Shown here: positions 5,587-23,898 of the stretch, in pieces | How positions within the stretch are numbered: position 1 is the stretch's first letter | Layout of the letters: each line of letters starts with the position of its first letter | Assembly: GCA_025839675.1 (NCBI GenBank) | Contig: CP104013.1 | Location: forward strand, 4,920,001 to 4,952,000 | Source of the DNA: Candidatus Lokiarchaeum ossiferum | GTDB taxonomy: Archaea; Asgardarchaeota; Lokiarchaeia; Sigyniarchaeales; Promethearchaeaceae | Length of the DNA: 32,000 nucleotides | Reading direction: 5' to 3' | Notes under the pieces: model-generated | Database searches by the model: none | What the model was told of the DNA's origin: nothing | What the model saw: only the letters and a program-made list of their open reading frames with translations | Position numbers and translations under genes: made by a program

Positions 5587-6648
5587 ATGCCTGAAGAAGA
5601 ATATAACGAAGATGGAGATTGGGAAGAAGATGAAAATAAACTTCCTGAATTTAAAATTAGCGGGGCTTCAACTATTCCCGGTGGGGTCATGAATCGAGAT
5701 ATAAAGATTTCCGGTTCTGGGAGAATTGAATCTGATCTTGAATGTGGATTTCTGAAATGTTCCGGAAGTATGCGTGCAGTGGGTAATGTTGTTGCACATG
5801 ATGGAGTTCGAACTTCTGGAAGCTTGAATATAAAAGGTTCTCTTATGTCAGATACTTATGCAAAGTTTTCAAGTTCTGCGGAAATCGGTGGAAATTTGGA
5901 TGTTGTAGAAGCAGTTAATTCCTCAGGTTCCCTAGTTATTGGAGGACAATTGTCGGTAGAAGGGCATTCCAAACATTCCGGATCTACAATAATTACAGGA
6001 GATGCAGTTGTTGGGTCAATTCATGCTTCTGGATCATTTAAATGTGGAGGATTATTAAATGCTGAAGGATTAGCTCACTTTAGTTCCCAAGCCAAAGTGG
6101 GAGGTGAAATTGTTGTGGGGTCTATTCGGGCATCCGGTTCTTTTCGGGGAGGTAAAGCATTAGAAGTGGAAGAAGATGCTCATTTCAGCAGTTCTGCGAA
6201 AATAGAACTGGGAACAAGTGTAAATGGGAGATTGAGTACTTCTGGGTCATTCTCTTCAGGTGGAAATATTGAATGTGAACAAGGAGGACATTTTTCAGGG
6301 CAACTCGAAACTCCAGAAAGTTTATACTCCAAAGGGACCATAGATATTACCGGAAAAGCAAAAATTGGAAAACACATTACGGGTGCAGATATTTTTATCG
6401 GAGTATCAAGAACAAGTGTTATTAAAACCCATCGCCCAAGAGATGCATCCTTGATTGGAGGTAATTTAAGAGCTGAAAATCTTGTGGATATTGAAGATGC
6501 TTACATTGATGGTGATATTTATGGAAGAGTTGTGCGATTAGGCCCCAATACAAAAGTTTTAGGAACAGTCTATTTTGTAGATGATTTCGTAGTAGATAAA
6601 AAAGCGGAATTTGCTGGCAACCAACAAATTACAAATGAAGAATTATAA
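5587..6648 (+). CDS. Bactofilin-like (polymer-forming, beta-helix repeat) protein
   Basis: 353 aa with an acidic N-terminus and no obvious signal peptide or TM segment. Gly/Ser/Val-rich repeats have an SGS motif recurring at residues 42, 59, 77, 112, 131, 148, 183 and 219. The spacings are about 17-18 or 35-36 residues. The C-terminal part (IGGNLRAENLVDIEDAYIDGDIYGRVVRLGPNTKVLGTVYF) reads like CcmA/bactofilin windings. GTGA lies 7 nt upstream of the ATG. Confidence 0.6.
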   Translation: MPEEEYNEDGDWEEDENKLPEFKISGASTIPGGVMNRDIKISGSGRIESDLECGFLKCSGSMRAVGNVVAHDGVRTSGSLNIKGSLMSDTYAKFSSSAEIGGNLDVVEAVNSSGSLVIGGQLSVEGHSKHSGSTIITGDAVVGSIHASGSFKCGGLLNAEGLAHFSSQAKVGGEIVVGSIRASGSFRGGKALEVEEDAHFSSSAKIELGTSVNGRLSTSGSFSSGGNIECEQGGHFSGQLETPESLYSKGTIDITGKAKIGKHITGADIFIGVSRTSVIKTHRPRDASLIGGNLRAENLVDIEDAYIDGDIYGRVVRLGPNTKVLGTVYFVDDFVVDKKAEFAGNQQITNEEL

Positions 6649-7574: not shown

Positions 7575-7961
7575 TTATACAGCAGATGTCGAAATTTTTT
7601 GGGCTTCTTTGCAGCGCAAATCAATTTTTGTTTTCGTATATTTTCCCACCCGATAGATTGATCTCGCGCCTAAAATTCCCATATAAGCAAAAATTATAAT
7701 AGACCAAAATGTTCCCATGCAACTTGTAAAATATTTATAAAATTGGGGTAAAAGGGGAAGATCTAAACCTAACCGCTCCTTGTTATCAAGATAGGTTTGA
7801 TAAGTTGAGTCTGTAATTTTTCCATTTTGTAATAAATATTCATATGGATTCCCAGGCATAGCACGAGTTAGTGCAAAACTAATAAGCATAACTCCAAATA
7901 GGATTGGAATAACGCCCAAAAGTCGACGAATAGTGTAATTTAACATACTCATTTTTTCCAC
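7575..7961 (-). pseudogene. Orphan N-terminal fragment of an ABC peptide/nickel-type permease (DppB/OppB-like)
   Basis: 128 aa. The first ~80 aa match the canonical permease N-terminus: MLNYTIRRLLGVIPILFGVMLISFALTRAMPGNPYEYLL...YLDNKERLGLDLPLLPQFYKYF. Resemblance then stops and the ORF ends, whereas full-length permeases are about 300+ aa. No partner permease, ATPase or binding-protein gene is adjacent. Confidence 0.6.
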
Positions 7962-8051
7962 TTAAGAATACCAGATGAATTTACATTTATAAGGCATGAG
8001 GAAAGGAATTGGAACAATTCTCCAAAGAAGCATTCCTACAAGTAAAAATTG

Positions 8052-9170
8052 CTATTGCAAAATCAAATAGTCTTCTGGATGAGATCCTAAAGAAAGCTGA
8101 AGATATGCTTGTTGATTGCGGATATAAACTACTTCAAGGGATCCTCTCGCTTGAAAATGCTCTAAAAGTCTAACATTTTCCGTAAATCTTCCCCTTAAAG
8201 TAAAAGTTGATGAAATATCACTTAGTTCTAAATTGTTTTCTTTCAACATTTGGAGGTAGTCTTCCTTTAGATCAGTTTTACTCAAAATTTTAACGTTTGT
8301 GATCTCTAATTCCGATGGAGTTGTCCACCAATTCTGGTCTCCTGCAACTTGACCCTGAAGGGAAATTCTTCCCAGCGTTTGAATGCACCGAGTGGAAAAT
8401 AAATTTCTTTGGGCATAGATGAAACGATCTGAGAACGGTAAAAAGCGGATGAAGAACTCTCGATTTCGGAATTTTCCTTGGTGAAGTTTGCGAGATTCAT
8501 ATTTCAAGAAAGTATAAAAGGAAATTGTCTGGGTAGGAACTCGAAAAGTGTAATGATCTCTTAATTCATCAATATTGTAGGCTCTAATTTCTGTAGTAGA
8601 AGGATTATTTTCGAAAATTTGTCGGAGGCATTCTCTAATTTTAGCGGAATGTTCAAAACCATAGATTATTATGTCTATATCTGAATCGGGGGTTTCTAAT
8701 CCTACCAAAGTGGATCCTGTAACTCCAAAATGGTCTAAAGGTACTTGGGATAGTTCAGAGAGGCATTTACAAAAATCATATGTATCACGTTGGACGGAAG
8801 AAGAAGATTCTTGGGTGGAGAGATGGGATGAACAAAGAAATTTCTCCGGTTTATAGTGTTTTATTATCCTACAATTGGGGACCGCTTGCAATGGAAAATA
8901 ATATTTTTCCGAAATATATTCATATTCCGGATAATTTTGACGCACATATTTCAGTTTGTCTGATAATTCATAGATTTTTTGATAATTTTGCATTTTGTTT
9001 GTTTGAAGATTTATTTTCTGTCTATCTAAGGAACTGATTGAATCGGTTGGATGATACCGAATAAAACAAACGATTTCATTTTGAGGTTGATGAAAACCCT
9101 TGATTTCAAAAATATTTCCCATGAGATCCTCAATAAAATCACCTTCGATACAATATTCTAAATCTGACAT
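8052..9170 (-). CDS. Predicted Pol-beta-superfamily nucleotidyltransferase (archaeal COG1665-like) with C-terminal beta-rich domain
   Basis: 372 aa. The central motif FGVTGSTLVGLETPDSDIDIIIYG is the GS...DxD signature of minimal nucleotidyltransferases. The N-terminal EGDFIEDLMGNIFEIKGFHQPQNEIVCFIRYHP and HYKPEKF resemble, from memory, the archaeal predicted-nucleotidyltransferase family. I cannot assign a substrate. Confidence 0.55.
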   Translation of the reverse strand: MSDLEYCIEGDFIEDLMGNIFEIKGFHQPQNEIVCFIRYHPTDSISSLDRQKINLQTNKMQNYQKIYELSDKLKYVRQNYPEYEYISEKYYFPLQAVPNCRIIKHYKPEKFLCSSHLSTQESSSSVQRDTYDFCKCLSELSQVPLDHFGVTGSTLVGLETPDSDIDIIIYGFEHSAKIRECLRQIFENNPSTTEIRAYNIDELRDHYTFRVPTQTISFYTFLKYESRKLHQGKFRNREFFIRFLPFSDRFIYAQRNLFSTRCIQTLGRISLQGQVAGDQNWWTTPSELEITNVKILSKTDLKEDYLQMLKENNLELSDISSTFTLRGRFTENVRLLEHFQARGSLEVVYIRNQQAYLQLSLGSHPEDYLILQ

Positions 9171-9240
9171 TATCTTCTTGCTCTCTTTTAATTTAGGATT
9201 TCATTAATTTTTTTTTGAATCTTCCATTGCTAACTGTATA

Positions 9241-9783
9241 ATGCAAAAACTATTTCGCCAATTATTGATCGAATTGGGAGAAGATCCCGATCGAGAAGGA
9301 TTAAAGGATACCCCTAAACGGGTCACCACATCATACAAATTTCTGACCCAAGGCTATCGGCAAAGTGTTAAGGAAGTCATTAATGGGGCTTTATTTGAGA
9401 GCGAATCCGATGAAATGATTGTTGTGAAAGATATCGAATTATACTCGTTATGTGAACATCATATGCTCCCCTTCATCGGCAAATGTCATTTGGGGTACAT
9501 ACCTAATGGCAAAATCATAGGTCTATCTAAAACCGCTCGAATTGTTGACGTTTTTGCACGAAGGTTACAAATCCAAGAACGCCTAACAAAGCAAATTGGA
9601 AACGCAATAATGGAACATACTGGAGCACGAGGTGTTGCTGTGGTGATTGAAGCAAAACACCTTTGTATGATGATGCGTGGTGTGGAAAAACAAAACTCAT
9701 CTATGAAAACATCCTATATGACCGGTATCTTCCGAAGTGATATGCGGACTCGATCGGAATTCATGAGTTTAATAAAAGATTAA
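9241..9783 (+). CDS. folE: GTP cyclohydrolase I (type IA, FolE)
   Basis: 180 aa. Motifs are [50 protein letters not shown], and [12 protein letters not shown]. Confidence 0.92.
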
Positions 9784-9794
9784 GGAAGAAAAAA

Positions 9795-10520
9795 CTAAAA
9801 TAAGCGTTTTTTTGGTAATTTAAGCAATTTATTCGCTTTTTGTAAATCTTCGTAGGTATCAATTTCCATACAGATTTCATTTTTTATCGCAAGTGGATGT
9901 AGATGGATTTCGGAAGAGATCTGATTGAATGCATTTTCTGCATAACAATTAGTTTCATGTTGTTCCACAAATGAGTTTATTTCCCTCATCCACCGCTCCA
10001 TATCTGCTTGGATCCAATAATATAAAGGTAGTAAGAACGCGGCATTTTCCCCAAAAATATCCAGACCTATTTGCTTAATTTCATTGTCGATAATCAATCC
10101 CTTAAAATCTTTTTCTGGTAATGGTTCATCAAAATCAACAATCACCGAACTTTTTTCTTGTTTAATTATTTTTTCAACGACGGAATCTTCAAATACCAAA
10201 TCTCCGTGAAGCAGGATGATATCATCATGCATTTTTTCTCGAGCTAACCACATTGAATAAATATAATTTGTTTTATCATATAATGGGTTATTCACATAGG
10301 TTACCGTTATATTGGGAAATTTTTCCTTGATATGAGCTTGAATTTTGTCTTCAAAAGGTCCAGTTGTAATTAAAAAGTCCATAAATCCACATTTGACAAA
10401 AGTTTCTATTTGTCGTTCTAAGATGGTCTTATTCCCTACTTGAAGAAGAGATTTATGGGTATTATCAGTTAAGGGCTTTAACCTTCGGGCCAATCCCGAG
10501 TTCAGTATCATAATTTTCAT
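9795..10520 (-). CDS. LicC-like sugar/phospho-alcohol nucleotidyltransferase (candidate phosphonate or phosphocholine-type cytidylyltransferase)
   Basis: 241 aa. The N-terminal motif is MILNSGLARRLKPLTDNTHKSLLQV, a G-x-G/S-x-R-L type NTP-binding loop. HGDLVF follows later. It is the last gene of the pepM-ppd-adh operon, 16 nt after the adh stop. Confidence 0.75.
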   Translation of the reverse strand: MKIMILNSGLARRLKPLTDNTHKSLLQVGNKTILERQIETFVKCGFMDFLITTGPFEDKIQAHIKEKFPNITVTYVNNPLYDKTNYIYSMWLAREKMHDDIILLHGDLVFEDSVVEKIIKQEKSSVIVDFDEPLPEKDFKGLIIDNEIKQIGLDIFGENAAFLLPLYYWIQADMERWMREINSFVEQHETNCYAENAFNQISSEIHLHPLAIKNEICMEIDTYEDLQKANKLLKLPKKRLF

Positions 10521-10536
10521 AGTAATCAGTTTTTTT

Positions 10537-11706
10537 TTATTTAATATTATGTAAAATTTCCCGCAGATCTTCTTTGGTAACTAATCGAGGATTATGTTTG
10601 ACTCGATCTGGGGTAAAACCTTCCGCAATAATTTTCTCAATTCCATTTTCATCAATATTGAATTGGGATAACTTCGTTTCCAAAGCCATTTCTTTCATTA
10701 TCATGGTCAATTTCAATGCTGCTTCTTCTGCAGTTTTGGTTTTGAAAAGAGAAATAATTGTTTGTAGTCTTTGCGGTGCTTCTAAAGTATTATTTGGCGT
10801 TTCAAGGGCATTAAACTTGATAAATTCTCCTAGGGTGAGAGCACATGCTAATCCATGCGGAATGTTAAAATGGAGCGTCATTGGGTATGAAACAGAGTGA
10901 ACTGCTGTTGTTTTTGTATTACTAAATGCTAACCCCGAAAACATACTCCCTAAGGCCATTTGCGTTCGGTAGGAGAGATCGGAAGGGTTATGAAACATTT
11001 TGGTAATATTTTCCAGGATTAACTCAATAGACTTAAGAGCAAATTCATCCGAGACTGGATTATGATTTTTAGACCAATAGGCTTCAATCGCTTGACTAAG
11101 TGCGTCCAAACCTGTCATTGCGCTCATTTTTGGAGGTAATTTTAGTAATAGGGTAGGATCGATTATCGAAGCTTTTGCAAACATTTTAGGATCTGAGAGT
11201 GAAAATTTCTTAAAAAAATCCCCTAAATCCCAGACTGTGGCCCACCGAGTAACTTCACTCCCGGTTCCAGCGGTTGTAGGAACTAATATTAATGGAACTC
11301 CTGTTTTTTCTAAAGATTTTCCTTTTTTTAGGTAGTCATTAATGCTTCCATTATTTCTCCCCAAAATGGCCATACATTTTGCCGTATCCATGGCAGATCC
11401 TCCTCCTATTCCAATTATCAACCCATATTGGTGCTTTCTTACACGTTCTGCACCCCTATCAATAATACTGATAGATGAATATTTTCCAGGTTTCTCAAAA
11501 AAATCTGCTGTATAACCGTTTGCTTTTAATAAAGTGTGGAGGTTTTCATGAATGCCAAGTATATTTAATAGATTTTCATCCGATACAATCAAAATATGGT
11601 TATTCTGCACATATTTTTGAATCGTGGGAAGAATTTTTTTAAAAGCATGTACCCCAAATATAGTTTCAACAGGATTATAATAGGAATAGGAGATATTTGT
11701 TGTCAT
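10537..11706 (-). CDS. Group III iron-containing alcohol dehydrogenase (candidate phosphonoacetaldehyde reductase, PhpC/FomC/Pdh-like)
   Basis: 389 aa. Motifs are LIIGIGGGSAMDTAKCMA, VPTTAGTGSEVT, and metal-ligand-like histidines in AVHSVSYPMTLHFNIPHGLA. The phosphonoacetaldehyde assignment rests on context, directly downstream of ppd. Confidence 0.8.
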   Translation of the reverse strand: MTTNISYSYYNPVETIFGVHAFKKILPTIQKYVQNNHILIVSDENLLNILGIHENLHTLLKANGYTADFFEKPGKYSSISIIDRGAERVRKHQYGLIIGIGGGSAMDTAKCMAILGRNNGSINDYLKKGKSLEKTGVPLILVPTTAGTGSEVTRWATVWDLGDFFKKFSLSDPKMFAKASIIDPTLLLKLPPKMSAMTGLDALSQAIEAYWSKNHNPVSDEFALKSIELILENITKMFHNPSDLSYRTQMALGSMFSGLAFSNTKTTAVHSVSYPMTLHFNIPHGLACALTLGEFIKFNALETPNNTLEAPQRLQTIISLFKTKTAEEAALKLTMIMKEMALETKLSQFNIDENGIEKIIAEGFTPDRVKHNPRLVTKEDLREILHNIK

Positions 11707-11722
11707 TAACTTCTTCTCGGTT

Positions 11723-12853
11723 TTATTTGTTTAATTCTTCTAAGTAATTCATGAAATATTGTTTATTTTCGATGGGTGTTGTTGTAGGTCGGCCCAAATC
11801 TGCTCGTGCACCCGGTTTCACTTTAACAATGATCATTGCGGGTCCTGGTTTCAAGAAAACTTTCTTCACAGTCTCCGATAGTTTTTCTTTGTCAGAGATG
11901 GTTATTACTGAAGCATATCCACAAGCTTCCGCCAATTTTTCCAATTTTATTGTGTCTGACACTGTGGGTTGGCCTCCCGTCGAATCATGGACATTATTAT
12001 CAAAGAGAAAATGGTAATAATTAGATGGTTTGTAATGGCCAATCGTCGCTAAGGATCCCATTTGCATGATCATCGCTCCATCCCCATCCAATATAACTGT
12101 TTTTTTTTTGGAATTTAAAGCAATTCCGAGTCCAATCGCTGATGCGCATCCCATGGATCCAACTGTGTAAAAATCTCTGGGATCTTCTCGACGAGAAATC
12201 CGTGTTTCAAATAACTCCCGTGAGGTTTTACCTGTAGTTGAAATGATCACTTCTTGCCCTTCTAATTGTGAAATAATTGCTTGGATTGCTTCTTCTCGAG
12301 AGAAATTCGATTTAGGCTCCTTCGTTTTCTGGCTCTTATAGGGATCTAGTGTATTTTTTTTGATGATAAATGCAAAAGGAGAATTTTTCTCCTTAATGTA
12401 TGTGAGGGCTTTACTCAACTCTAGTTCTAAATCTTTTGGATTATCCGGAAATATGGTGTGGCGGATTTCCAAAGTGTCTAACAGTGGAATTGTAATTCTC
12501 CCCATTTTTTTATGTTGTGGTTCATCTTTTTTGCCTGGTTCTCCTCGCCATCCTATAAGCATCAATAGAGGGATAGAATAAACTTCGGGGTCGGCCAACG
12601 ATGTTATCGGATTAACGGTCTTTCCTAAACCAGAATTCTGCATATAAACAATACCACACTTTTTCGTGGCCAGATGATAACCCGAAGCAATTGCTAATGC
12701 TTCACATTCATTTGCTGCGATTACATTTTGTAGTACCTTCCCGTTCATATCATCTAAGAAACTCATCCATGATTTGAAGGTTGAATCGGGGACTCCTGTA
12801 AAAAAGTCTAATCCTTTTTTCTGAAAAATATTCCACATTTCATGAGGATTCAT
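11723..12853 (-). CDS. ppd: Phosphonopyruvate decarboxylase (ThDP-dependent)
   Basis: 376 aa. Motifs are FFTGVPDSTFKSW, NECEALAIASGYHLATKKCGIVYMQNSGLGKTVNPITSL, LMLIGWRGEPGKKDEPQHKKMG, and the ThDP motif LDGDGAMIMQMGSLATIG...FDNNVHDSTGGQ. Its start abuts the pepM stop with a 0-nt gap, and GGAGG lies upstream. Confidence 0.92.
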   Translation of the reverse strand: MNPHEMWNIFQKKGLDFFTGVPDSTFKSWMSFLDDMNGKVLQNVIAANECEALAIASGYHLATKKCGIVYMQNSGLGKTVNPITSLADPEVYSIPLLMLIGWRGEPGKKDEPQHKKMGRITIPLLDTLEIRHTIFPDNPKDLELELSKALTYIKEKNSPFAFIIKKNTLDPYKSQKTKEPKSNFSREEAIQAIISQLEGQEVIISTTGKTSRELFETRISRREDPRDFYTVGSMGCASAIGLGIALNSKKKTVILDGDGAMIMQMGSLATIGHYKPSNYYHFLFDNNVHDSTGGQPTVSDTIKLEKLAEACGYASVITISDKEKLSETVKKVFLKPGPAMIIVKVKPGARADLGRPTTTPIENKQYFMNYLEELNK

Positions 12854-14155
12854 TTATTTTCCTCCCGGAATAAGTTCAAGGATTTCTTTAATGGGCATAC
12901 AAAATTTCTCAGATGCTTCTTTAGCTCGCTCATTTTGTAAAATGGACTTTGCTGTGGCCACCATATTTGGATAGGCACTGCGTAAGAGATGATTTGCATA
13001 AATGACTATTTTTATACCCGCTTTGATTAATTCGTCTTCGGTTATTTGACAATATGTTGAAGGAACAACTACAATCGGGACTCTTTCCTCCAATTTAGCA
13101 AACTCTTTGCAAAAATCCAAAATTTCGGTTGGTTCTTTTTCTTTACTATGGATCATAATCGCATCTGCACCCGCTTTGATATAAGCTTTAGCTCGGGCCA
13201 ATGCATCGGCTTGTCCTTGTTTCAAAATCAAACTTTCAATTCGTGCGATGATCATGAAATGAGGTGTAATTTGTGCTTTTTTTCCCGCATTGATTTTTGC
13301 AGCAAAATTTTCAATGGAATCTTGAGTTTGTTTTACATCGGTTCCAAATAGAGAATTTCTTTTAGGTCCCACTTTATCCTCAATAATTACCGCAGAAACC
13401 CCCAACCGTTCAAGTTTTTTCACTGTAAAAATAAAATGTTCTGTCAAACCCCCACTATCGGCATCAACAATCATTGGTTTTGTGGTGACCTCTAAAATTT
13501 CATCGATATTTTTTAATCTGGATGTGATATCGACTGCACCCGTATCAGGTTTCCCTTTGGATGTTGAATCTGTTAAACTACTTTCCCACATCCCATCAAA
13601 TTCTTTCACCATTTCTCCTTTAACAATTCGAGTTTCTTCCACGATCCGGCCTGTTAAGCCATTATGGACTTCTAAAATTCGAACTATTGGTTTTAATTCA
13701 ATCAATTGTCGGAGTTTTCGTAAACGTAATTCCGGAGTTGTTCCGATACCAAATTTATCACGAAATAATTCATCTGAATTATATTCTTGGGAATATTCTG
13801 GTTCTATTAGTTTTCCTCCCCATTCATTTAAGATATTGATTACTTTTTCTCTGATATGTCGTTGAGGTCCTTCTTTCCAGTTGGTTCCATGAACTACATA
13901 ATCAGGTTTTATTTTATATAGGTTTTCTGAATAATCGAGAGTTTTCTGGGGAATAATTTCTGAAATTCCTTCAATAATCGAGATAATTTCTTTACGTTGC
14001 TCATAGTTCAGAACGGGAATTCTTCTATATGTGGCAATTGCTTCATCTGTAAGCATGCCAATTATTATTGTTCCAAGCTTTCTTGCTTCTTTTATTATTT
14101 TAATGTGACCTGGATGAATGAAATCTGCACTCATCGCAACATAAACTTTTGTCAT
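12854..14155 (-). CDS. pepM: Bifunctional cytidylyltransferase-domain / phosphoenolpyruvate mutase (Fom1-like architecture)
   Basis: 433 aa. Residues about 1-130 form an HxGH-type cytidylyltransferase domain (VYVAMSADFIHPGHIKIIKEARKLG, then VVHGTNW). Residues about 140-433 form the PEP mutase domain (ILEVHNGLTGRI, FDGMWESSLTDSTSKGKPDTG, MIVDADSGG, the PepM-type motif IIEDKVGPKRNS, and IMIHSKEK). Confidence 0.92.
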   Translation of the reverse strand: MTKVYVAMSADFIHPGHIKIIKEARKLGTIIIGMLTDEAIATYRRIPVLNYEQRKEIISIIEGISEIIPQKTLDYSENLYKIKPDYVVHGTNWKEGPQRHIREKVINILNEWGGKLIEPEYSQEYNSDELFRDKFGIGTTPELRLRKLRQLIELKPIVRILEVHNGLTGRIVEETRIVKGEMVKEFDGMWESSLTDSTSKGKPDTGAVDITSRLKNIDEILEVTTKPMIVDADSGGLTEHFIFTVKKLERLGVSAVIIEDKVGPKRNSLFGTDVKQTQDSIENFAAKINAGKKAQITPHFMIIARIESLILKQGQADALARAKAYIKAGADAIMIHSKEKEPTEILDFCKEFAKLEERVPIVVVPSTYCQITEDELIKAGIKIVIYANHLLRSAYPNMVATAKSILQNERAKEASEKFCMPIKEILELIPGGK

Positions 14156-14174
14156 GAGATTTTACCTATCCATA

Positions 14175-14198
14175 ATCAAGGTGTCCTTGATTTAAAAT
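14175..14198 (-). promoter_or_regulatory. TATA-like box plus 17-bp palindrome immediately upstream of pepM
   Basis: A perfect inverted repeat, ATCAAGG-TGT-CCTTGAT, spans 14175-14191. It lies 19 nt upstream of the pepM ATG (14155). It directly abuts a TTTAAAAT element at 14191-14198. An operator between the TATA box and the start codon is the geometry typical of archaeal repressors. Confidence 0.3.
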
Positions 14199-14531
14199 TT
14201 GTCTAAATGGTTGCTTACTAATAAGAAATAAGATTCCTTGTTATATTTCTGTCAAATTGTTGTTCAATTGAATGAAAATCCTAAATGATCTAAATTTGTT
14301 TAGGGTTCAATCAAATTTACATTAAATATTAGAGATTTGATTTTTAATCTGTGTTAAATTTCATCGCAAAAATACTATATCTTACCTTATGATTTCTACT
14401 AAAATACATCTACTTACCTATATGAAATTTGATTTTCTTTCATCTTAATTTCAAAATAAGTTATATTAAAGATATTATAATTTTTATTAGGTATGCGTTC
14501 CAAGATTGTATTAATCAATTCTGTGAGAAAA

Positions 14532-15464
14532 ATGGCTAAACGAAAATATACCGATATTGAAAAAATCAAAGCAATATATGAAAGTGTTAAAAAAAATGGA
14601 TACAAGAAGACTTCGGAGATATTTGATGAACATATTTCTCTTTTAGAACGAATTGTAATGCGATATCAAAATAATATAGTTGATAATAAAATGAAAGTAA
14701 TAATAATTGCTGCTGGAATGGGGTCCCGTCTTAAAGAAATGACAAAGTACCTCCCAAAACCATTGGTGGAGATTGAAGAAAACAAATCTCTTATTGAACG
14801 AGAGATTGAAACTCTTCACAAAGTTGGATTAAATGATATTGCCATTGTTCGAGGATATCAAAAAGATAAATTCACCATTAAAAACGTGGAATATTATGAT
14901 AATGATGTTTATACAGAGAATAATATTTTAGAATCACTCTTCTTTGCAGAAGATGCTATGGAAGATGGATTTATTTGTACCTATGCTGATAGTATTTTTT
15001 CCCAAGAAATCTTCCAGAAAATTTTGGATGCTCCCTATGATATGTGTATTGGAGTGGAACCAGATTGGAGAAAAAGATATGCAAAACGCGATGAACATCC
15101 TACCGATGAAGCAGAATTAGTTAAACTTGAAGATGGGAAAATTACTTCCATTTCCAAATTCTGCAATCCTGATACTTACGATGGGGAATTTATTGGAGTC
15201 GCAAAATTTACAAAAAAAGGGGCAGAAATCCTACGACGAAATTATCATCGAGCTCGGGAAAGTAAAACCTGTCGGTTTGAAGATCATCAACGATTTCATG
15301 ATGCTGTATCAATACGAAAGGCTTATTTGACGGATATGTTTCAAGAATTAATTGATCGGGGTTATCCAATTCATGCTGTCAAAGTTAATCATGGGTGGGT
15401 CGAAATAGACACTCAACAAGATTTTGATTATGCTAAAAAATTGATAGAAAATGGTGAATTATAA
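14532..15464 (+). CDS. LicC-like nucleotidyltransferase with a possible N-terminal HTH-like extension
   Basis: The core starts at MKVIIIAAGMGSRLKEMTKYLPKPLVEI (ATG 14691) and contains IVRGYQ, YADSIF and GEFIGVAKF. The open frame continues upstream to ATG 14532, which is preceded by GTGAGAAAA. That is the same GTGA-N6-8-ATG context as rpl12 and the beta-helix gene. The extension reads MAKRKYTDIEKIKAIYESVKKNGYKKTSEIFDEHISLLERIVMRYQNN. The track start at 14493 is also possible. Confidence 0.7.
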   Translation: MAKRKYTDIEKIKAIYESVKKNGYKKTSEIFDEHISLLERIVMRYQNNIVDNKMKVIIIAAGMGSRLKEMTKYLPKPLVEIEENKSLIEREIETLHKVGLNDIAIVRGYQKDKFTIKNVEYYDNDVYTENNILESLFFAEDAMEDGFICTYADSIFSQEIFQKILDAPYDMCIGVEPDWRKRYAKRDEHPTDEAELVKLEDGKITSISKFCNPDTYDGEFIGVAKFTKKGAEILRRNYHRARESKTCRFEDHQRFHDAVSIRKAYLTDMFQELIDRGYPIHAVKVNHGWVEIDTQQDFDYAKKLIENGEL

Positions 15465-15465
15465 G

Positions 15466-16776
15466 ATGAGTGAAATAAGTTCTGAAAATATTTCCTCGGA
15501 TGTTCCCGAAGAGTTAAAAAGTCGAAGAATTCAGATTTTTTTCACCGTTTGGGTCACTTATATGATTTACTATATAGGAAGATCTAATATCAGTGTTGCT
15601 AAACCGTTTATGATGGAAGAATATGGGATTTCCACCACTATTTTTGGATCTATCGGCTCTGCCTTCTTTTATGCCTACGCATTTGGACAATTCTTCAATG
15701 GGTTTTTAGGAGATAAATTGGGTGCCCGAAGGATGGTTTCATTGGGTTTGGTGGTTTCTTCCATATTTAATATCTTAATTGGGGGATTTGGACAAAATGT
15801 ATGGTTATTTGGTATTTTCTGGGGGTTAAATGGATTTTTCCAAGCTATGGGATGGGCTCCTTCTGTTAAAACCATTGCAAATTGGTTTCCTCCAAAGGAA
15901 CGTGGAAAATGGTCGAGTCGGTTAGGAACGTCGTATATGATCGGTGGATCACTTGCATGGGTAATTGCTATCTTAATTTCAAATACATTTGGTTTGTCAT
16001 GGAGATTTGTGTTTATAATTCCCGCCATTCTTATGGCTATAATTGGTGTTTTTAACTATATCAATGTCCGTAATGCTCCTGAAGAAGCGGGATTTTCCAC
16101 AATTGAAGAAGAAAGTGAAGGGAATGTTAAAAAAGGTGAGTCCAAAACAGATGAATATTTAGGATTCAAGTATACTCTCAAGGCTATCTTTACAAATAAA
16201 ACCATATTATTTGCTGCATTTGGACTTTTTTGTTTAAATATGGTTCGCTATGGCATAACTGAGTGGCTTCCAACTCTAATTGCTTTTGAATCAACAGATC
16301 AATTGACAATCTGGAAAATTGTTGCTTTCCCTGTTGGTGGGGCAATTGGTGCCCTAACATGTGCTAAGATTTCTGATAAATATTTGAAACAAAGAAGAAT
16401 GCCGATAATTTCTGTATTATTTGGATTATTAGCTCTTTCCTTATTTATTTATAGCAAGATTCCTCAAGTTAATCTAATAATTGGAGTACCTTTATTAACA
16501 ATAATTGGATTTTTAACCTTTGGACCTCATGCTCTATTAGTTTCCACAATACCTATGGAATTTGGAACGCGTAAGGCTGCTTCATCTGCAACTGGCTTCA
16601 TTGATGGGTGGGGTTATGTCGGAGCTGCAATCTCTACACAGATTGTGGGTATTATTTTAGAATCTGAAGGGGGATTGCAAACAGCCTATCTATTTTGGAT
16701 TATCGCTGCATTAGCTGCTTGTGTGATCCTTATGTTTAACTGGAAAAGTGTACCGAAGAAAAAAGAATTTTTATAA
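15466..16776 (+). CDS. MFS transporter, organophosphate:phosphate antiporter family (GlpT/UhpT/UhpC-like)
   Basis: About 436 aa with about 12 hydrophobic segments. The family-typical N-terminus is RRIQIFFTVWVTYMIYYIGRSNISVAKPFM, followed by FFYAYAFGQFFNGFLGDKLGARRM. GGTGA lies 8 nt upstream of ATG 15466. The track start at 15451 overlaps the upstream stop. Confidence 0.85.
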   Translation: MSEISSENISSDVPEELKSRRIQIFFTVWVTYMIYYIGRSNISVAKPFMMEEYGISTTIFGSIGSAFFYAYAFGQFFNGFLGDKLGARRMVSLGLVVSSIFNILIGGFGQNVWLFGIFWGLNGFFQAMGWAPSVKTIANWFPPKERGKWSSRLGTSYMIGGSLAWVIAILISNTFGLSWRFVFIIPAILMAIIGVFNYINVRNAPEEAGFSTIEEESEGNVKKGESKTDEYLGFKYTLKAIFTNKTILFAAFGLFCLNMVRYGITEWLPTLIAFESTDQLTIWKIVAFPVGGAIGALTCAKISDKYLKQRRMPIISVLFGLLALSLFIYSKIPQVNLIIGVPLLTIIGFLTFGPHALLVSTIPMEFGTRKAASSATGFIDGWGYVGAAISTQIVGIILESEGGLQTAYLFWIIAALAACVILMFNWKSVPKKKEFL

Positions 16777-16872: not shown

Positions 16873-16902
16873 ATGAAATTATCTCTCTCAAAATCAAGAA
16901 TT
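16873..16902. repeat. Copy A of a perfect 30-bp direct repeat (ATGAAATTATCTCTCTCAAAATCAAGAATT)
   Basis: It is identical to 16953-16982. Copy A lies just 3' of, and overlaps by 2 nt, the stop codon of the Nudix gene. Confidence 0.95.
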
Positions 16903-17488
16903 AGTCTTGATGTTTTAACCCTTTGAAATAAAACCAGACATTGCTTTCAATTATGAAATTATCTCTCTCAAAATCAAGAATTTTTTTTTGAAAATCACTC
17001 TTTTCAACCCAGAATGGAATAATTTCTTCTGCCTCCTCGTGTTTTGTTAACCCAATGTTTTCTTCAATAATTTCAAGTTCCACGATAGAAGTCGTTTCGT
17101 CTGTTAAATAAGCACTAGTTGCCATGAAGGGATGAATTTCAATGATTTTTCCATCATAACCTGTTTCTTCTTTTAATTCGCGGATTGCTGCATCTGTGAT
17201 TGATTCACCCTCGTTTATTAATCCTTTTGGAAATTCGATTACCCATTTATTTAATGGGACTCGGAATTCTTTGAGAAGTAATATTTTTGTCATATTTATC
17301 GAATGACAAAGCAAAATGACGATTTTTTGGTTATTTTTCCGTGAAACATAATCCCATTTGAAGTGATCTCCATCCTTACTCAAGCAAGATGCTTGTTTAA
17401 GTGCTAACCACTCTGTACCATGTAATTGTTTGATATCCGTAATTTTCATACCATTTTCCTCAATATATATTTCTATTTTTTGTTCCAT
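16901..17488 (-). CDS. Nudix hydrolase, ADP-sugar pyrophosphatase-like (NUDT5/ADPRase type)
   Basis: 195 aa. The Nudix box is GLINEGESITDAAIRELKEETGY within EFPKGLINEG... The N-terminal beta-domain pattern is WLALKQASCLSKDGDHFKWDYVSRKN. The alternative start ATG 17449 has GAGGA 7 nt upstream and would remove the 16-nt overlap with the upstream gene. Confidence 0.85.
   Translation of the reverse strand: MEQKIEIYIEENGMKITDIKQLHGTEWLALKQASCLSKDGDHFKWDYVSRKNNQKIVILLCHSINMTKILLLKEFRVPLNKWVIEFPKGLINEGESITDAAIRELKEETGYDGKIIEIHPFMATSAYLTDETTSIVELEIIEENIGLTKHEEAEEIIPFWVEKSDFQKKILDFERDNFIIESNVWFYFKGLKHQD
16953..16982. repeat. Copy B of the perfect 30-bp direct repeat
   Basis: It is identical to 16873-16902. 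It lies inside the Nudix CDS and encodes ILDFERDNFI on the minus strand. The copy-to-copy offset is 80 bp. Confidence 0.95.
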
Positions 17489-18246
17489 TCATTTAGCCAA
17501 TTAATAGAGTGCTCAATAAACAGATCTAAATATTTACCATCAAAATTATGGCCGGTCCCTTCGATTTCCACTCGTTTTTTCTTAAGTTTTGCAGGCATGT
17601 GTTGAAAAGCTTCAATAATAACTTTTGGGTATATGGTTGTATCTTTATTTCCATGAATTATTAAAGAAGGAACTTCCATATTTTCCAAGTATTGATTTGG
17701 ATTTTTCATTTTTTCATCAGAAATAAATGTATAATCCATAAGAACTGGATGATTGTTTAAGGATTCTCTTTTTATTGGAGGGCGTTTAAAGATATAGGCC
17801 AATTTCAAAAGAAATTTGTGAAATTTAGGAATTAAACGAAATATATAGAAAGCGGGTGCCCAAAAAATATATGATACAATATCGGGAATTTGGGTCACCA
17901 AGGCGGTTAATCCTCCAAAACTTAGCCCCAGTATATTTATTTTAACATAACCTTTTTCTTTTAAATAATTGTAAATATCTTTCAAGTCTTGGGATTGTTT
18001 GGATAATGTAATAGGTTCTCGGATGTTCTTCCCCGAACCTGAAAAATCGAATGTTATGGCATCATATCCGTTTTGATTTAAAATGGTCGCCGTTTTCTCA
18101 AACCTTCCCCATTCTGTCTGATCCCCTGTAAATCCATGACAAAGAACTACAATCGGCGTTATTAAAGGATCTTTCTCTGTTGTATAAATTGTTGCGTGTA
18201 AAAACCCATCAATGGATCGAGAAACTTGAATTTTTTTTAACATCAA
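17473..18246 (-). CDS. Alpha/beta-fold hydrolase
   Basis: 257 aa. The oxyanion region is VVLCHGFTGD. The nucleophile elbow is GLSFGG (GxSxG). IIHGNKDT and GTGHNF supply the Asp/His candidates. Confidence 0.8.
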   Translation of the reverse strand: MMLKKIQVSRSIDGFLHATIYTTEKDPLITPIVVLCHGFTGDQTEWGRFEKTATILNQNGYDAITFDFSGSGKNIREPITLSKQSQDLKDIYNYLKEKGYVKINILGLSFGGLTALVTQIPDIVSYIFWAPAFYIFRLIPKFHKFLLKLAYIFKRPPIKRESLNNHPVLMDYTFISDEKMKNPNQYLENMEVPSLIIHGNKDTTIYPKVIIEAFQHMPAKLKKKRVEIEGTGHNFDGKYLDLFIEHSINWLNEWNKK

Positions 18247-18274: not shown

Positions 18275-19912
18275 TTATTCTTGGATATATTTACTACCTT
18301 TTTGAAGAGCTAATTCTGCTCGAGCAAGTTCTCTCCCCAAATAAGCTGCATGATCTAGCCTCGAAATTAAGTTTTGTTTGATCATTTCTTTGCATATTGC
18401 TTCTGCATTTACCCCAGAAAAAACATCAGTCCCTGTAATTTGGTTATTAAAAAGAATATGATGGCTAACAATGATTTTTTTTTCCAGTTCATCGAGATAG
18501 ATCTTAAAAAAACCGTTGGGATCCATTATTGCGTCTGTTTTAAGTGGAGGTATTTCGATGAAAGATTTCCGATTTTCCATGAATTCAGGATATAAGTCTT
18601 TGAATTTAAAACTAAATGCATCTACTCCAAGATTGATCGGAGGTTGATCTAATTTTTTAGCCAGAAAAGCTAATTTTTTACTTCGATTTATTTCTTCAAA
18701 AGAGTGGCGTGTTTTATTGGATGCTTCAGTGCTCAATATTGCTGCAATATTTAACTCTGCTCCCAATAATGATAGAAGTGTGTTTATTCCTGGAGAATCT
18801 CCATCGGTTAATTCCGTAACATTTCCAAATCCCATCATAATTTGAGATTGAGGGTGATTTTCTGGCAGGTTATTTCGATATTCAAAATTCTGTAATTTTT
18901 CATTCAAAATTTGTAAAACGTGAATTGATGAAGTTAATCCTGGTGAAATGGGTGATTGTGTTATTGGATCTAACAAAATCCGCTTAAATCCCGCCTGACG
19001 CAATTTTTCTTCAATGAAAAATAATCTATCAACTATTTCTTTGGAGTTAGTTAAAGAAATTGGATATTTACTTGAAAAAGGGATAATTACTAAAGTAATT
19101 TCTTTGGAGAAATCAAGCAATTTCTTATAGTTATCAATAGTAACACTGAGAACCAAATCAACACCTGCCTTAACTGCTGTAACTATTTCATCTGCATTAA
19201 GGCTATCAATGCTAATTGGTGTTTTTAATTGAGATTTAATTAATCTAATAATTTCCGGAATTCTTGCACTATGATTCTCATTTGCAATACAACCCAAATC
19301 TATTACATTTACACCTTGTTGAACGTAGTTTGATGCAATTTTTAATAAAATTTCATTCGTTTTTTTTGGGAAATCAACAATTTCACCAATAAGTAGGGGC
19401 GGTAAAAAAGAACTGACCAAAACAGTTGGAAATTGATCGGAAAGATTAAAATAATTTTTGCTATTTTCGGATATTAATGTTTCTCTGGAGTTACAGATGA
19501 GTTCTTCCATTTTGGTCTGTCCTTGATTTTCTAATTTGATGTTTGCTGGATATTTGGCTGAAAAATCTGAAATGTTTAGCTTTTTAAGTACTTCTGGAAA
19601 AGTGCCAAAAAATTTCGGACCTTTTTTTATTCTTCCCTGAAATGGCCCTTTAATTTCATCTAAATCCCATGGAATTAATCCTGATACTAAAATGAAGTGA
19701 AATTCTTCCTTCTTAAATTGATTTAAGTAATTTTCCAACTCTATTTTTGTGAGGAACGCAATGGTTCCAATTGGGATCTTGGCAATTTGGAATTGATATT
19801 TGGCCTGAAAGTGATCTAAATTTACATTTTTTATGTAATCAAAGGCATTTTCTCCAGTGATCAAAAGAATTTTTTGTGGATTTTCAGATTTTAGTCTCAT
19901 CGCGCTATTCAA
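18275..19912 (-). CDS. Dihydropteroate synthase-like (pterin-binding) protein with N-terminal and C-terminal extra domains (MJ0107-like family)
   Basis: 545 aa. The central TIM-barrel pterin-binding-like region contains QQGVNVIDLGC, ISIDS, LVLSV and GFGNVTEL. The C-terminal about 90 aa (DPNGFFKIYLD...LDHAAYLGRELARAELAL) resembles the domain found fused to archaeal DHPS-like proteins. Its stop-proximal neighbours are pterin and cofactor genes. Confidence 0.7.
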   Translation of the reverse strand: MNSAMRLKSENPQKILLITGENAFDYIKNVNLDHFQAKYQFQIAKIPIGTIAFLTKIELENYLNQFKKEEFHFILVSGLIPWDLDEIKGPFQGRIKKGPKFFGTFPEVLKKLNISDFSAKYPANIKLENQGQTKMEELICNSRETLISENSKNYFNLSDQFPTVLVSSFLPPLLIGEIVDFPKKTNEILLKIASNYVQQGVNVIDLGCIANENHSARIPEIIRLIKSQLKTPISIDSLNADEIVTAVKAGVDLVLSVTIDNYKKLLDFSKEITLVIIPFSSKYPISLTNSKEIVDRLFFIEEKLRQAGFKRILLDPITQSPISPGLTSSIHVLQILNEKLQNFEYRNNLPENHPQSQIMMGFGNVTELTDGDSPGINTLLSLLGAELNIAAILSTEASNKTRHSFEEINRSKKLAFLAKKLDQPPINLGVDAFSFKFKDLYPEFMENRKSFIEIPPLKTDAIMDPNGFFKIYLDELEKKIIVSHHILFNNQITGTDVFSGVNAEAICKEMIKQNLISRLDHAAYLGRELARAELALQKGSKYIQE

Positions 19913-20481
19913 GTCTCTTTTTTTTCCAAAATATAAGTCATTATTTCTTGTGGATTGGAGAAAACAAGAGTGTTTGGAAATTTTGTCAAAGAATTTGCAT
20001 TTTTACTATTAAATTCATCGATCGTAATTTCTATGGTGCCTCCTTGAGGGATTTCTGTTTGGATTTTCCCGTGGACTATGTCAGTTGGAACCAAAAGAAT
20101 TTTTCCCCTTCCCTTAATCATCTGAGAAAAAATATTGGTGATCAAAGAATCTGCAATTCCACATCGCATTTTTGCTACGGAATTCGAAGTCACAGGACTT
20201 ATCACAAGAAAATCATAGAATCCTAAATTAAATTTGGCACAAATTGGAAAACCTGGCTTTTGAGTCCGACCATAATAGATTTTTTTTACTTGATTTGGGT
20301 TCTCTTTTTGAATTTTATCTAACCGAGATTTCAAAGAATACATATTAATTACTATTTCTGCTGCTTGGGATATAAATAAATCAATATTTTCCCCATTTTG
20401 CACTAATTTTTCAATTATTCCAATACTATTCTTTAATTGATGCCCTGCACCTGTTATCCCCCACGCGATTTTCATCATCAT
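19909..20481 (-). CDS. afpA: Archaeoflavoprotein AfpA-like flavoprotein (dihydromethanopterin-reductase-related family)
   Basis: About 190 aa. Motifs are KIAWGITGAGHQL and VISPVTSNSVAKMRCGIADSLITNIF...LLVPTD, a PF02441-type flavoprotein pattern. Three consecutive ATGs (20481, 20478, 20475) follow GGGAG. The track uses TTG at 20490. The stop overlaps the start of the DHPS-like gene by 4 nt. Confidence 0.75.
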   Translation of the reverse strand: MMMKIAWGITGAGHQLKNSIGIIEKLVQNGENIDLFISQAAEIVINMYSLKSRLDKIQKENPNQVKKIYYGRTQKPGFPICAKFNLGFYDFLVISPVTSNSVAKMRCGIADSLITNIFSQMIKGRGKILLVPTDIVHGKIQTEIPQGGTIEITIDEFNSKNANSLTKFPNTLVFSNPQEIMTYILEKKET

Positions 20482-20499
20482 TACTCCCAAATTTCTATC

Positions 20500-21573: not shown

Positions 21574-21590
21574 ATTGAATCATTTAGATA

Positions 21591-22364
21591 ATGGATATGA
21601 AAAATAAAGACTTTTTTTATTTGGAATCCAAATACTTCATAGCTGGTAAAGATATGAATGAACCACAAGAAAATACGAATACTGTTCAATTTGAACCTCT
21701 AATAAATTATGAATCAATTATCTGTGTACGATTTCTTGATAATCCCCAAAAGATAAATGCTGCATGCATAGGTGTTCATTTTACTTCGAATAATGAAGTA
21801 TATATTCATGCATATTCTGATACTCACACCCGAGCGATTTTACAGCCTGGGGTAACGTTTGTTATTAATTTTTCAGAATGTTTTTATGAATTCGTCATAG
21901 CAGGATTAAAAACGAAAGGGATTGATGAACGTGTGGACGAACTACCCATTTCTGCTTATCGAGATGATTTTTCGGTTCCAGTATTAAAATCATCATGGTG
22001 TGCAGTAGAATGTGAGGTCATCCCTATGCCGTCGAAAATTTTATCTAAACCTGAATGTCGCAGAAGAGAAGCTCCAAATATTAGGGCTAAAATCAAATCT
22101 ATTCACACTTTTCACTACCCGCATATTTTCAATAATCGTTCTATGAATCTTGCTATAGAAGCATTAATTTATGCTACTCGAATCCCCCTTTATGAAAAAT
22201 ATTCAAAGGAATATAAGGAGAGCCTTACCTCCTACCTTACAATTAAGAAAAAAATTACGGAATGGCGTGATATGGATCGCTTTGAAGAATCCTTTACAGT
22301 GATTGATAATTTTCTGATCGATCGAAATGTTAAGGTACAAGAACTATTTGATTTCAGTCACTAA
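21591..22364 (+). CDS. DUF447-like protein (MfnF-family candidate, methanofuran biosynthesis)
   Basis: 257 aa. INAACIGVHF...IHAYSDTHTRAILQPGVTFVINFSE and NLAIEALIYATRI resemble the DUF447 pattern (N-A-A-P-x-G-V ... T..N ... E..I.A.R). The context is a cofactor island. The 3' end overlaps the convergent mptD-like gene by 11 nt. Confidence 0.5.
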   Translation: MDMKNKDFFYLESKYFIAGKDMNEPQENTNTVQFEPLINYESIICVRFLDNPQKINAACIGVHFTSNNEVYIHAYSDTHTRAILQPGVTFVINFSECFYEFVIAGLKTKGIDERVDELPISAYRDDFSVPVLKSSWCAVECEVIPMPSKILSKPECRRREAPNIRAKIKSIHTFHYPHIFNNRSMNLAIEALIYATRIPLYEKYSKEYKESLTSYLTIKKKITEWRDMDRFEESFTVIDNFLIDRNVKVQELFDFSH

Positions 22365-22773: not shown

Positions 22774-22810
22774 AGTCCCTAAACCTAAAAAAGCATATTA
22801 AAATAATGTA

Positions 22811-23815: not shown

Positions 23816-23898
23816 TAAAATAACCTCAAGAAAAATAGTGCAAAATTTGATAAATTTTTTTTCTTTTTCAAGGATAATTAAAATCTTGGAAAGAAAAA

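Follow-up and report, generated by a model that had tools for sequence, protein, structure and literature searches.

The DNA analysed here is a window of 32 kb from Candidatus Lokiarchaeum ossiferum, a cultured Asgard archaeon. The subject is an operon of four genes predicted to make and activate 2-hydroxyethylphosphonate (HEP), together with a divergently transcribed module that comprises a nucleotidyltransferase (NTase), a transporter of the major facilitator superfamily (MFS) and, probably, a NUDIX hydrolase. The operon runs on the minus strand from 14155 to 9795 with intergenic gaps of 0, 16 and 16 nt. Its first gene encodes a cytidylyltransferase (CyTase) domain fused to phosphoenolpyruvate (PEP) mutase (PepM), and the remaining genes encode a phosphonopyruvate decarboxylase (Ppd), an alcohol dehydrogenase (ADH) and an NTase:

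12854-14155, minus strand: CyTase-PepM fusion, 433 aa; CyTase domain at aa 1-~135 (nt ~13751-14155), PEP mutase at aa ~144-433
11723-12853, minus strand: Ppd, 376 aa; begins right after the pepM stop (0-nt gap)
10537-11706, minus strand: predicted PhpC-type ADH (group III metal-dependent), 389 aa
9795-10520, minus strand: LicC/PntC-like NTase, 241 aa, final gene of the operon
14156-14492: divergent AT-rich intergenic region of 337 nt, separating pepM from the NTase-MFS pair
14493-15464, plus strand: LicC/PntC-like NTase, 323 aa (NTase323), first gene of the NTase-MFS module
15451-16776, plus strand: OPA-family MFS transporter, 441 aa; 14-nt overlap with the NTase323 gene
16901-17488, minus strand: NUDIX hydrolase, 195 aa, convergent with the MFS gene

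The listing of open reading frames (ORFs) reproduced the frames and gaps given in a first-pass annotation of this DNA, and the motifs quoted there (HPGH, IIEDKVGPKRNS, FFTGVPDS, YMQNSGLG, IGWRGEPGKKDEPQH and GGGSAMDTAK) are all present in the translations. The archaeal origin that it assumed is correct: proteins of Ca. Lokiarchaeum ossiferum match the fusion protein with 100% identity.

The 433-aa protein combines the Pfam domains PF01467 (E 3.2e-12) and PF13714. With the NCBIfam equivalog model for PEP mutase (TIGR02320) it scores 396.4 bits, above the cut-off of 319.55, and the models of sister families score lower (Pphn_pyruv_hyd, 152.6 bits; prpB, the methylisocitrate lyase model, 99.9 bits; CPEP mutase, 52.4 bits). 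Alignment to Mytilus PepM (1m1b) pairs D204, D231, D233, E259, K265, N267, S268, R305 and H336 with Mytilus D58, D85, D87, E114, K120, N122, S123, R159 and H190, positions that we take to be the Mg ligands, the gating loop and the catalytic residues. All nine are kept, together with the EDKxxxxxNS motif, so that profile, residues and motif uphold the initial assignment to PepM rather than to methylisocitrate lyase. The name 2-methylisocitrate lyase, which the protein bears in one NCBI assembly of L. ossiferum, is contradicted by the NCBIfam scores and is a misannotation. We identify the C-terminal part of the protein as a PEP mutase, with the predicted activity of converting PEP to phosphonopyruvate.

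Among solved structures, the N-terminal domain is closest to the crystallised CyTase domain of Fom1 (5x3d; E 2.7e-46, 70 of 127 residues identical, 55%), followed by ethanolamine-phosphate cytidylyltransferase (ECT, 1e-13) and TagD (3e-08), and it contains an HxGH motif in the form HPGH. At E <= 1e-20 the fusion has more than 8000 matches among database proteins; the best 120 of these are all PF01467-PF13714 fusions with HxGH intact, and some homologues carry the Joint Genome Institute (JGI) label 'PEP phosphomutase / 2-hydroxyethylphosphonate cytidylyltransferase'.

The two genes that follow encode the steps expected downstream of PepM. The 376-aa protein, with TPP_enzyme_N (PF02776) and TPP_enzyme_C (PF02775) domains, passes the phosphonopyruvate decarboxylase model TIGR03297 with 467.2 bits against a cut-off of 312.5. 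The 389-aa ADH contains PF00465 and PF25137. According to a 2026 study of HEP dehydrogenases (PMC13576164), PhpC enzymes have a strictly conserved Tyr four residues past the first metal-binding His (H260/Y264/H274 in P. fungorum), a position occupied by Phe in sulfoacetaldehyde reductases. The ADH segment HSVSYPMTLHFNIPH fits the pattern H-x3-Y-x9-H and has the diagnostic Tyr, and we predict that the enzyme is a PhpC-type phosphonoacetaldehyde reductase making HEP. The equivalog cut-offs, the catalytic residues, the 5x3d match and the PhpC Tyr all support the earlier proposal of a PepM/Ppd/PhpC-type front end for HEP with a Fom1-like CyTase. The 241-aa NTase contains PF00483 and PF12804, and its best solved relative is LicC (1jyk), matched over the full length with E 1.2e-14; the match to PntC (6pd1) has E 2.7e-07.

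The combination of CyTase-PepM, Ppd, ADH and LicC-like NTase was mapped in other genomes by looking up gene contexts and scanning GTDB species genomes, and tabulated by tblastn (loci are numbered with the prefix L). The same gene order was found in Lokiarchaeum relatives, with 76-95% identity and the same synteny of neighbouring pterin genes, in metagenome-assembled genomes (MAGs) of Promethearchaeum and its isolate P. syntrophicum MK-D1 (75%), and also in Heimdallarchaeaceae, Woesearchaeota, Nanoarchaeota and MAGs labelled Methanosarcinales. Among bacteria, candidate phyla radiation (CPR) bacteria, Spirochaetaceae, Myxococcota, Bdellovibrionales and Gammaproteobacteria have fusions with 58-67% identity and, with them, the first three genes of the set. 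Ppd comes after pepM in every cassette locus, and orthologues of the 241-aa NTase (43-88% identity) hold the fourth position in the Loki, Heimdall and Woesearchaeota cassettes. Judged by gene order and distribution, the four-gene set is a conserved and mobile cassette.

The flanks of the cassette differ by lineage and consist mostly of surface-glycan machinery. At L005 and L011 they include LicD, a protein of 441-446 aa, glycosyltransferases, NeuB and sulfotransferases, and in Woesearchaeota (L006-L008) sulfatase-family proteins, a Wzx-type flippase, PMT_2 and glycosyltransferases. LicD and the fusion occur on common contigs in four lineages. The 441-446-aa protein (L005 6230-7555; L011 5179-6519) has no Pfam match, is 54% identical between the two loci and adjoins LicD, which makes it a candidate membrane partner of the transferase. 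Directly upstream of the Woesearchaeota cassettes, within the glycan cluster (L006-L008, ~7900-10000), lie a B12-binding radical-SAM enzyme and a stand-alone PF01467 CyTase; to judge by this arrangement, a Fom3-like methylation of cytidine monophosphate (CMP)-HEP may serve surface decoration there instead of an antibiotic.

The contents of the remainder of the window were determined by a Pfam scan of the whole 32 kb, covering ORFs of at least 100 aa other than those merely overlapping a better-supported gene on the opposite strand. The scanned ORFs include no aminotransferase, cupin, B12-radical SAM enzyme, LicD, CDP-alcohol phosphotransferase, sulfatase-type protein or glycosyltransferase, in agreement with the first-pass annotation, which had listed a 2-aminoethylphosphonate (2-AEP) transaminase, tailoring enzymes and a phosphonate transferase as missing. 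For an oxygenase of the MpnS/HEPD type, the Pfam-based search yielded no cupin-type match and no unassigned ORF of fitting size in the window.

Comparison with characterised systems places the operon among known phosphonate pathways. Fom1 of Streptomyces wedmorensis has the same N-terminal PF01467 HxGH cytidylyltransferase fused to PepM, and the Fom1/FomC/Fom2 pathway takes the same PepM, Ppd and group-III ADH route to HEP. In contrast to Fom1, the Lokiarchaeum protein has a degenerate second CTP (cytidine triphosphate) motif, and the Lokiarchaeum cassette has a fixed fourth gene, the LicC-like NTase. The window also lacks the enzymes that define the later part of the fosfomycin cluster, namely the B12 radical-SAM methyltransferase Fom3, the epoxidase Fom4/HppE and the hydrolase FomD, with no Radical_SAM, B12-binding, cupin or DUF402 match in the scanned ORFs. 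The Lokiarchaeum locus is not a fosfomycin cluster, and the connection once drawn between its transporter and fosfomycin uptake through GlpT and UhpT is an analogy, not evidence.

A closer parallel is offered by the Pnt clusters (PMC6697681), in which a simple phosphonate is likewise nucleotidyl-activated for transfer to surface glycans or lipids. They share with the Lokiarchaeum cassette or its relatives a Ppm-nucleotidyltransferase fusion, a further NTase of the LicC family, and LicD or glycosyltransferase neighbours. The characterised PntC enzymes, however, use 2-AEP supplied by an AEP transaminase, whereas Lokiarchaeum has a PhpC-type reductase in its place, from which HEP is the expected head group. 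The host differs as well, being an Asgard archaeon, whereas the 2019 survey (PMC6697681) was bacterial. According to that survey, phosphonate tailoring works predominantly through nucleotidyl activation. The methylphosphonate cluster of N. maritimus and the HEP-exopolysaccharide cluster of Stackebrandtia nassauensis, compared by their descriptions, have the same PepM/Ppd/Fe-ADH front end (for N. maritimus, PMC8942020 and PMC9381506). As around the cassette in relatives, they have neighbouring nucleotidyltransferases and sulfatase-like or LicD-type genes, which hint at phosphonate esters on exopolysaccharide; the Lokiarchaeum window differs in having no MpnS, sulfatase-like or LicD gene. These two are the only PhpC-type gene-cluster families with isolated products, a methylphosphonate adduct in N. 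maritimus and the HEP-exopolysaccharide in Stackebrandtia (PMC8942020). Marine pepM/aepY/phpC neighbourhoods in bacteria and Thaumarchaeota contain LicD, NTases annotated as 'choline kinase', and arylsulfatases (PMC9381506), and Prochlorococcus phosphonates have been proposed to reside on surface glycoproteins (PMC8931226).

The novelty that the first-pass annotation saw in an HEP-activating pathway of this lineage is overstated. PF01467 is fused to 23.6% of Ppm enzymes (Rice 2019, PMC6697681), HEP-type clusters make up 8.5% of ppm neighbourhoods (Li & Horsman 2022, PMC8942020), and the >8000 homologues and the JGI label point the same way. In the full-text literature we found no paper tying Asgard lineages to pepM or to phosphonate biosynthesis. 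The phosphonate biochemistry is of a known and routine kind; the host lineage is new.

On the other side of the divergent intergenic region, NTase323 carries PF12804 and PF00483 and matches LicC (1jyk, E ~1e-14) and PntC (6pd1, 6.7e-05). Its identity with the 241-aa NTase is merely 32% over 120 aa, and its own homologues (52-79% identity) are spread across the Loki, Hermod, Hod, Odin, Thor, Hel and Heimdall lineages. In the AlphaFold2 (AF2) model (predicted local distance difference test, pLDDT, 85.8) the top fold match is PntC (6pd2, E 1.8e-15), followed by LicC and inositol-1-phosphate cytidylyltransferases (IPCT), with sugar-1-phosphate enzymes scoring just slightly below these. The N-terminal ~65 aa (14493-14690) are predicted to form a three-helix bundle (H22-35, H37-44 and H48-62; pLDDT ~80-92). 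This extension, which has no Pfam match, is present in the 307-323-aa versions from Loki, Hod and Hermod and not in the 254-aa versions, and to judge from the model it may be helix-turn-helix-like.

The transporter belongs to MFS_1 and aligns over its full length with GlpT (1pw4, E 1.5e-40). Among NCBIfam models its best match is TIGR00881 of the organophosphate:Pi antiporter (OPA) family, whose 230.9 bits are below the cut-off of 407.75, and so are its scores on named members (glpT, 185 against 632 bits; UhpT, 165 against 497 bits). Both phosphate-binding Arg residues of GlpT are kept, R45 as R44 and R269 as the Arg of 'MVRYGI', and the residues that contact glycerol 3-phosphate (G3P) and its glycerol moiety are lost (K80 to Q, H165 to Y). 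By profile and residue comparison, the protein is a predicted OPA-family member that is not GlpT, UhpT or PgtP. The same pattern, with phosphate-binding residues kept and glycerol-binding ones lost, was described for AepP, a GlpT-related permease of Pseudomonas putida that imports 2-AEP (Murphy et al., PMC8316502); the likeness rests on that published description, and AepP differs in serving catabolism, not activation. The pairing of a transporter with a LicC-type cytidylyltransferase also recalls the uptake-then-activation logic of the Lic pathway (LicB/LicA/LicC/LicD). There, however, choline is imported by a non-MFS permease and a kinase is required, whereas the Lokiarchaeum module has no kinase, so that the imported substrate should already carry phosphorus.

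The NUDIX protein contains PF00293, and its best NCBIfam model, NudE (ADP-compounds hydrolase), gives 50 bits, which is below the cut-off. Because its gene adjoins NTase-MFS in MK-D1 (L014), Heimdall (L015/L016), L012 and L085, it is probably the third member of the module, and by family it is a candidate NDP-X hydrolase acting on a CDP- or CMP-head-group compound. With FolE and MptD flanking the locus, a role as the pterin-pathway enzyme NudB was considered and found less likely: the best model is of the NudE type, MK-D1 and Heimdall have the gene in company with NTase-MFS, and L013, with its full set of pterin genes, lacks it. A tblastn search for NUDIX around the NTase323 loci matched in 0 of 33 eligible loci, the family being too divergent for it, and a NUDIX-box regular expression recovered L085 alone.

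A metagenome scan with an alignment of the NTase323 family returned 80 loci, of which 38 had sufficient downstream sequence, and in 33 of these 38 an MFS gene lies directly downstream of the NTase323-type gene. The arrangement of the window as a whole is common to the 95% relative (L012) only. In the 81% relative (L013) a pterin gene abuts pepM, and NTase323, MFS, NUDIX and the neighbouring alpha/beta hydrolase are all missing; the 76% relatives (L001/L002) have no NTase-MFS pair. In MK-D1 the triad of NTase, MFS and NUDIX lies among TagF-like, GT2, DegT, sulfatase-like and GT4 genes, ~300 kb by coordinates from the cassette, and in a Heimdall genome it lies beside Pst/PhoU genes; neither triad has a pepM within 8 kb. 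These arrangements overturn the initial picture of one locus with three NTase modules and a transporter. On comparative gene order, NTase323, MFS and NUDIX appear as a separable, Asgard-wide module. We softened a stronger reading, that of a fully independent module, because the NTase-MFS pair has PepM, or else Ppd plus a cassette-type NTase, as a neighbour in L061, L075, L077 and L128. At L075, PepM is C-terminally fused to an NTP_transf_3 domain.

Other lineages place the module together with PepM, a CDP-alcohol phosphotransferase, a TagF-like protein and a sulfatase-like protein of ~505 aa. In several Asgard loci (L060-L065, L075, L077) the CDP-alcohol phosphotransferase (~270 aa, 54-73% identity between loci) and the sulfatase-like protein (64-73% identity between loci) precede NTase-MFS; the latter is 46% identical to the MK-D1 protein that follows its NUDIX (L014 11238-12782). 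The module would import a ready-made organophosphate or phosphonate by exchange with inorganic phosphate (Pi) and activate it as a CDP or CMP conjugate, the NUDIX enzyme would trim the activated pool, and the product would feed CDP-X-dependent head-group transferases. We found no published description of the NTase-MFS module, although the literature was not searched for it specifically.

From these data we judge it probable that the operon is an HEP-type phosphonyl-tailoring cassette for surface attachment, lying beside a separate Asgard module for uptake and activation. Nucleotide-activated HEP for surface decoration, which the first-pass annotation had put forward, is the most likely output, given that the cassettes of relatives lie among LicD, glycosyltransferase, flippase and sulfatase-like genes. 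The PepM domain would convert PEP to phosphonopyruvate, and Ppd would decarboxylate this to phosphonoacetaldehyde, drawing the unfavourable equilibrium forward. The PhpC-type ADH would then reduce the aldehyde to HEP, the presumed end product. HEP and CTP would be joined to CMP-HEP by the Fom1-like domain, the 241-aa NTase or both, with CMP as the probable nucleotide. CMP-HEP would serve as donor for a phosphotransferase encoded outside the window, for which the neighbourhoods of relatives suggest LicD, sulfatase-like proteins and CDP-alcohol phosphotransferases as candidates. HEP would in this way become ester-linked to an acceptor on the cell surface, for which a glycan or glycoprotein of the L. 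ossiferum envelope is the likeliest candidate. This envelope has one membrane, complex densities at its surface and no ordered S-layer (PMC9834061); the same paper makes no mention of glycosylation or phosphonates.

Several observations weigh against this reading, beginning with the reductase. The ADH scores 259.1 bits on the Phn_Fe-ADH model TIGR03405, under the cut-off of 423.7, although this is still its top NCBIfam model (ErcA, 230; SarD, 205). Its second metal ligand is Gln (GLDALSQAIE; D-A-L-S-Q) where PhpC has His, so that in place of the Asp/His/His/His set it shows the Gln found in sulfoacetaldehyde reductases, whose set is Asp/Gln/His/His (PMC13576164). The same Gln (D-A-L-x-Q) occurs in all 23 cassette-linked ADHs with a match to the motif pattern, archaeal and bacterial (L001-L049), which suggests a family trait rather than decay. 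With the Gln ligand and the PhpC-specific Tyr combined, the cassette ADHs look like a distinct PhpC subclass.

The activation step raises further difficulties. The second CTP-binding motif, of the RTxGISTT type, is known for its role from TagD/GCT enzymes. In the L. ossiferum CyTase domain it is degenerate, reading YSQEYNSD (aa ~121-128); the series from YTPGISST in Fom1 and YTKGISST in DPANN orthologues through FTEGLNSG in Promethearchaeum describes a stepwise decay towards L. ossiferum. Activity of the fused domain may be low or lost in L. ossiferum or the Loki clade, which would give a reason for the second transferase of the operon; the retention of two cytidylyltransferases within one cassette is otherwise unexplained. 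The head-group pocket of the 241-aa NTase gives no substrate signal: the equivalent of LicC D192 is Q, A, E, R, N or D in nine cassette orthologues, and in the cassette NTases invariant D and A stand in for LicC W131 and W186. We dropped a substrate assignment from the LicC/PntC head-group residues on account of the variation at the D192 equivalent. The residue given as D105 by Rice et al. did not tally with the numbering of the 1jyk alignment and was set aside.

The last steps fare no better within the genome at hand. No phosphotransferase, glycosyltransferase or flippase is encoded anywhere within the 32-kb window. A search with a Heimdall LicD query returned 65 matches, none of them named Lokiarchaeum or Promethearchaeum, in a search that depends on 5-mers and has limited sensitivity, so that absence is unproven; on this result the final transfer step is without support in L. 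ossiferum. As for the module, the direction of transport is not readable from sequence, and uptake, like the substrate itself, is proposed by likeness to relatives.

A lipid acceptor in place of a glycan is unlikely. Here a CDP-alcohol phosphotransferase would place the HEP of CMP-HEP on a lipid alcohol to give an archaeal phosphonolipid head group, an idea suggested by the conserved ~270-aa CDP-OH_P_transf protein that accompanies NTase-MFS and PepM in several Asgard loci, by a CDP-OH_P_transf gene 5-7 kb upstream of the Promethearchaeum cassette (L003, L019), and by the phospholipid-synthesis genes in Burkholderiales ppm clusters with two PntCs (PMC8942020). The Promethearchaeum protein, however, is a distant paralogue (~30%) of the module-linked one and is separated from the cassette by the housekeeping genes AlaX, thermosome and PALP. 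The best NCBIfam match of the module-linked protein, archaetidylinositol-phosphate synthase, is far under its cut-off, no CDP-OH_P_transf is present in the window, and the contexts of the cassette are mostly glycan clusters.

It is quite improbable that operon and module form a single six-gene unit making a free small molecule, with NUDIX or another hydrolase freeing the phosphonate in the manner of FomD and the MFS protein exporting it or conferring self-protection. Characterised transporters of the OPA family are importers or exchangers, and AepP imports 2-AEP (PMC8316502). The transient cytidylylation documented for Fom1, as reported by way of PMC6697681, would provide a precedent, and the adjoining NUDIX could cleave a CMP-phosphonate, but the window contains no enzyme that requires a CMP handle (no candidate for a Fom3-like radical SAM enzyme, HppE, HEPD or MpnS). 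NTase-MFS divergently adjoins pepM in the window and in the 95% relative, and recurs beside PepM in the four loci L061, L075, L128 and L077; against this linkage, the cassette occurs without the MFS module in L001-L003, L005, L011, L013 and L019, and the module occurs without a nearby pepM in MK-D1 and Heimdall. That HEP is an intermediate only, converted before attachment to methylphosphonate or 2-hydroxypropylphosphonate, for example, by an unlinked MpnS-, HEPD- or Fom3-like enzyme, is very unlikely: the front end shared with the N. maritimus pathway and the B12-radical SAM enzyme and extra stand-alone CyTase directly upstream of the Woesearchaeota cassettes speak for it, but none of the nine examined Asgard cassette loci has such an enzyme beside the cassette, and L. 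ossiferum is grown anaerobically whereas MpnS and HEPD are O2-dependent.

We accordingly retain the HEP-tailoring cassette with a separate module as the preferred reading; its interest lies in the two cultured Asgard hosts, whose envelope is uncharacterised, and in the Asgard-wide NTase-MFS module. The prediction is open to direct test, since the cassette is present in two cultured organisms, L. ossiferum and P. syntrophicum MK-D1. If confirmed chemically, the product would give Asgard archaea their first assigned phosphonate, and HEP conjugates would join a very short list of archaeal carbon-phosphorus compounds. The Asgard surface has been discussed with regard to cell-cell contacts relevant to eukaryogenesis. 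In the ocean, HEP and methylphosphonate are the main phosphonates of high-molecular-weight dissolved organic phosphorus (PMC8931226), and cassette-bearing sediment archaea (Asgard, DPANN) would widen the range of their candidate sources. A more far-reaching version, which we consider doubtful, is that Asgard archaea, both cultured strains among them, coat an S-layer-less envelope with HEP and in addition possess a conserved, previously undescribed system for head-group salvage and activation, in which an AepP-like antiporter exchanging organophosphate or phosphonate for Pi is joined by a PntC/LicC-like cytidylyltransferase, a NUDIX enzyme, a CDP-alcohol phosphotransferase and a transferase of the sulfatase-like kind.

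The divergent region between the two transcription units lies in DNA with a GC fraction of 0.279 (across 14001-15000). A block of ~65 nt directly upstream of the pepM start is kept in the 95% relative L012. The intergenic stretch 14156-14492 contains TAGGTAAR twice exactly and once as a variant; as a meaningful motif it was rejected, with 4 occurrences window-wide against 1.36 expected and 4 reached in 7 of 100 shuffles, which is not significant. Scans of the window for tRNAs and against Rfam gave no matches, and the base composition of the cassette shows no anomaly.

The phosphonate genes are inserted within a conserved neighbourhood of pterin/tetrahydromethanopterin biosynthesis genes (9241-9783 and 18275-25290), whose synteny is retained in L012 and L013. 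The genes closest to the insertion are the following:

9241-9783: FolE, pterin neighbourhood
17473-18246, minus strand: alpha/beta hydrolase, 257 aa; 16-nt overlap with the start of NUDIX
18275-19912: DUF4346 pterin-binding protein, pterin neighbourhood

Further members of the neighbourhood are a flavoprotein, DUF1464 and DUF447 proteins, an archaeal-type dihydroneopterin aldolase, a GHMP kinase and an AIRS-like protein. The alpha/beta hydrolase has Hydrolase_4 and Abhydrolase_1 domains and is absent from L013. L001/L002, which have no NTase323, MFS or NUDIX, carry an orthologue (52%) immediately upstream of the cassette, and it is uncertain whether the hydrolase is part of the phosphonate system.

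Beside FolE lies a gene for a 372-aa protein (8052-9170, minus strand) with a weak match to the Pol-beta-type NTP_transf_2 domain and no NCBIfam match, conserved in this position in L012 (69%) and L013 (40%). The surrounding genes also include those for the archaeal ribosomal proteins L11, L1 and L10P, and elsewhere in the window are encoded a bactofilin-domain protein of 353 aa (5587-6648), the CO dehydrogenase/acetyl-CoA synthase (CODH/ACS) delta subunit CdhD (27649-29184) and a GH127 beta-L-arabinofuranosidase-like protein (29222-31270).

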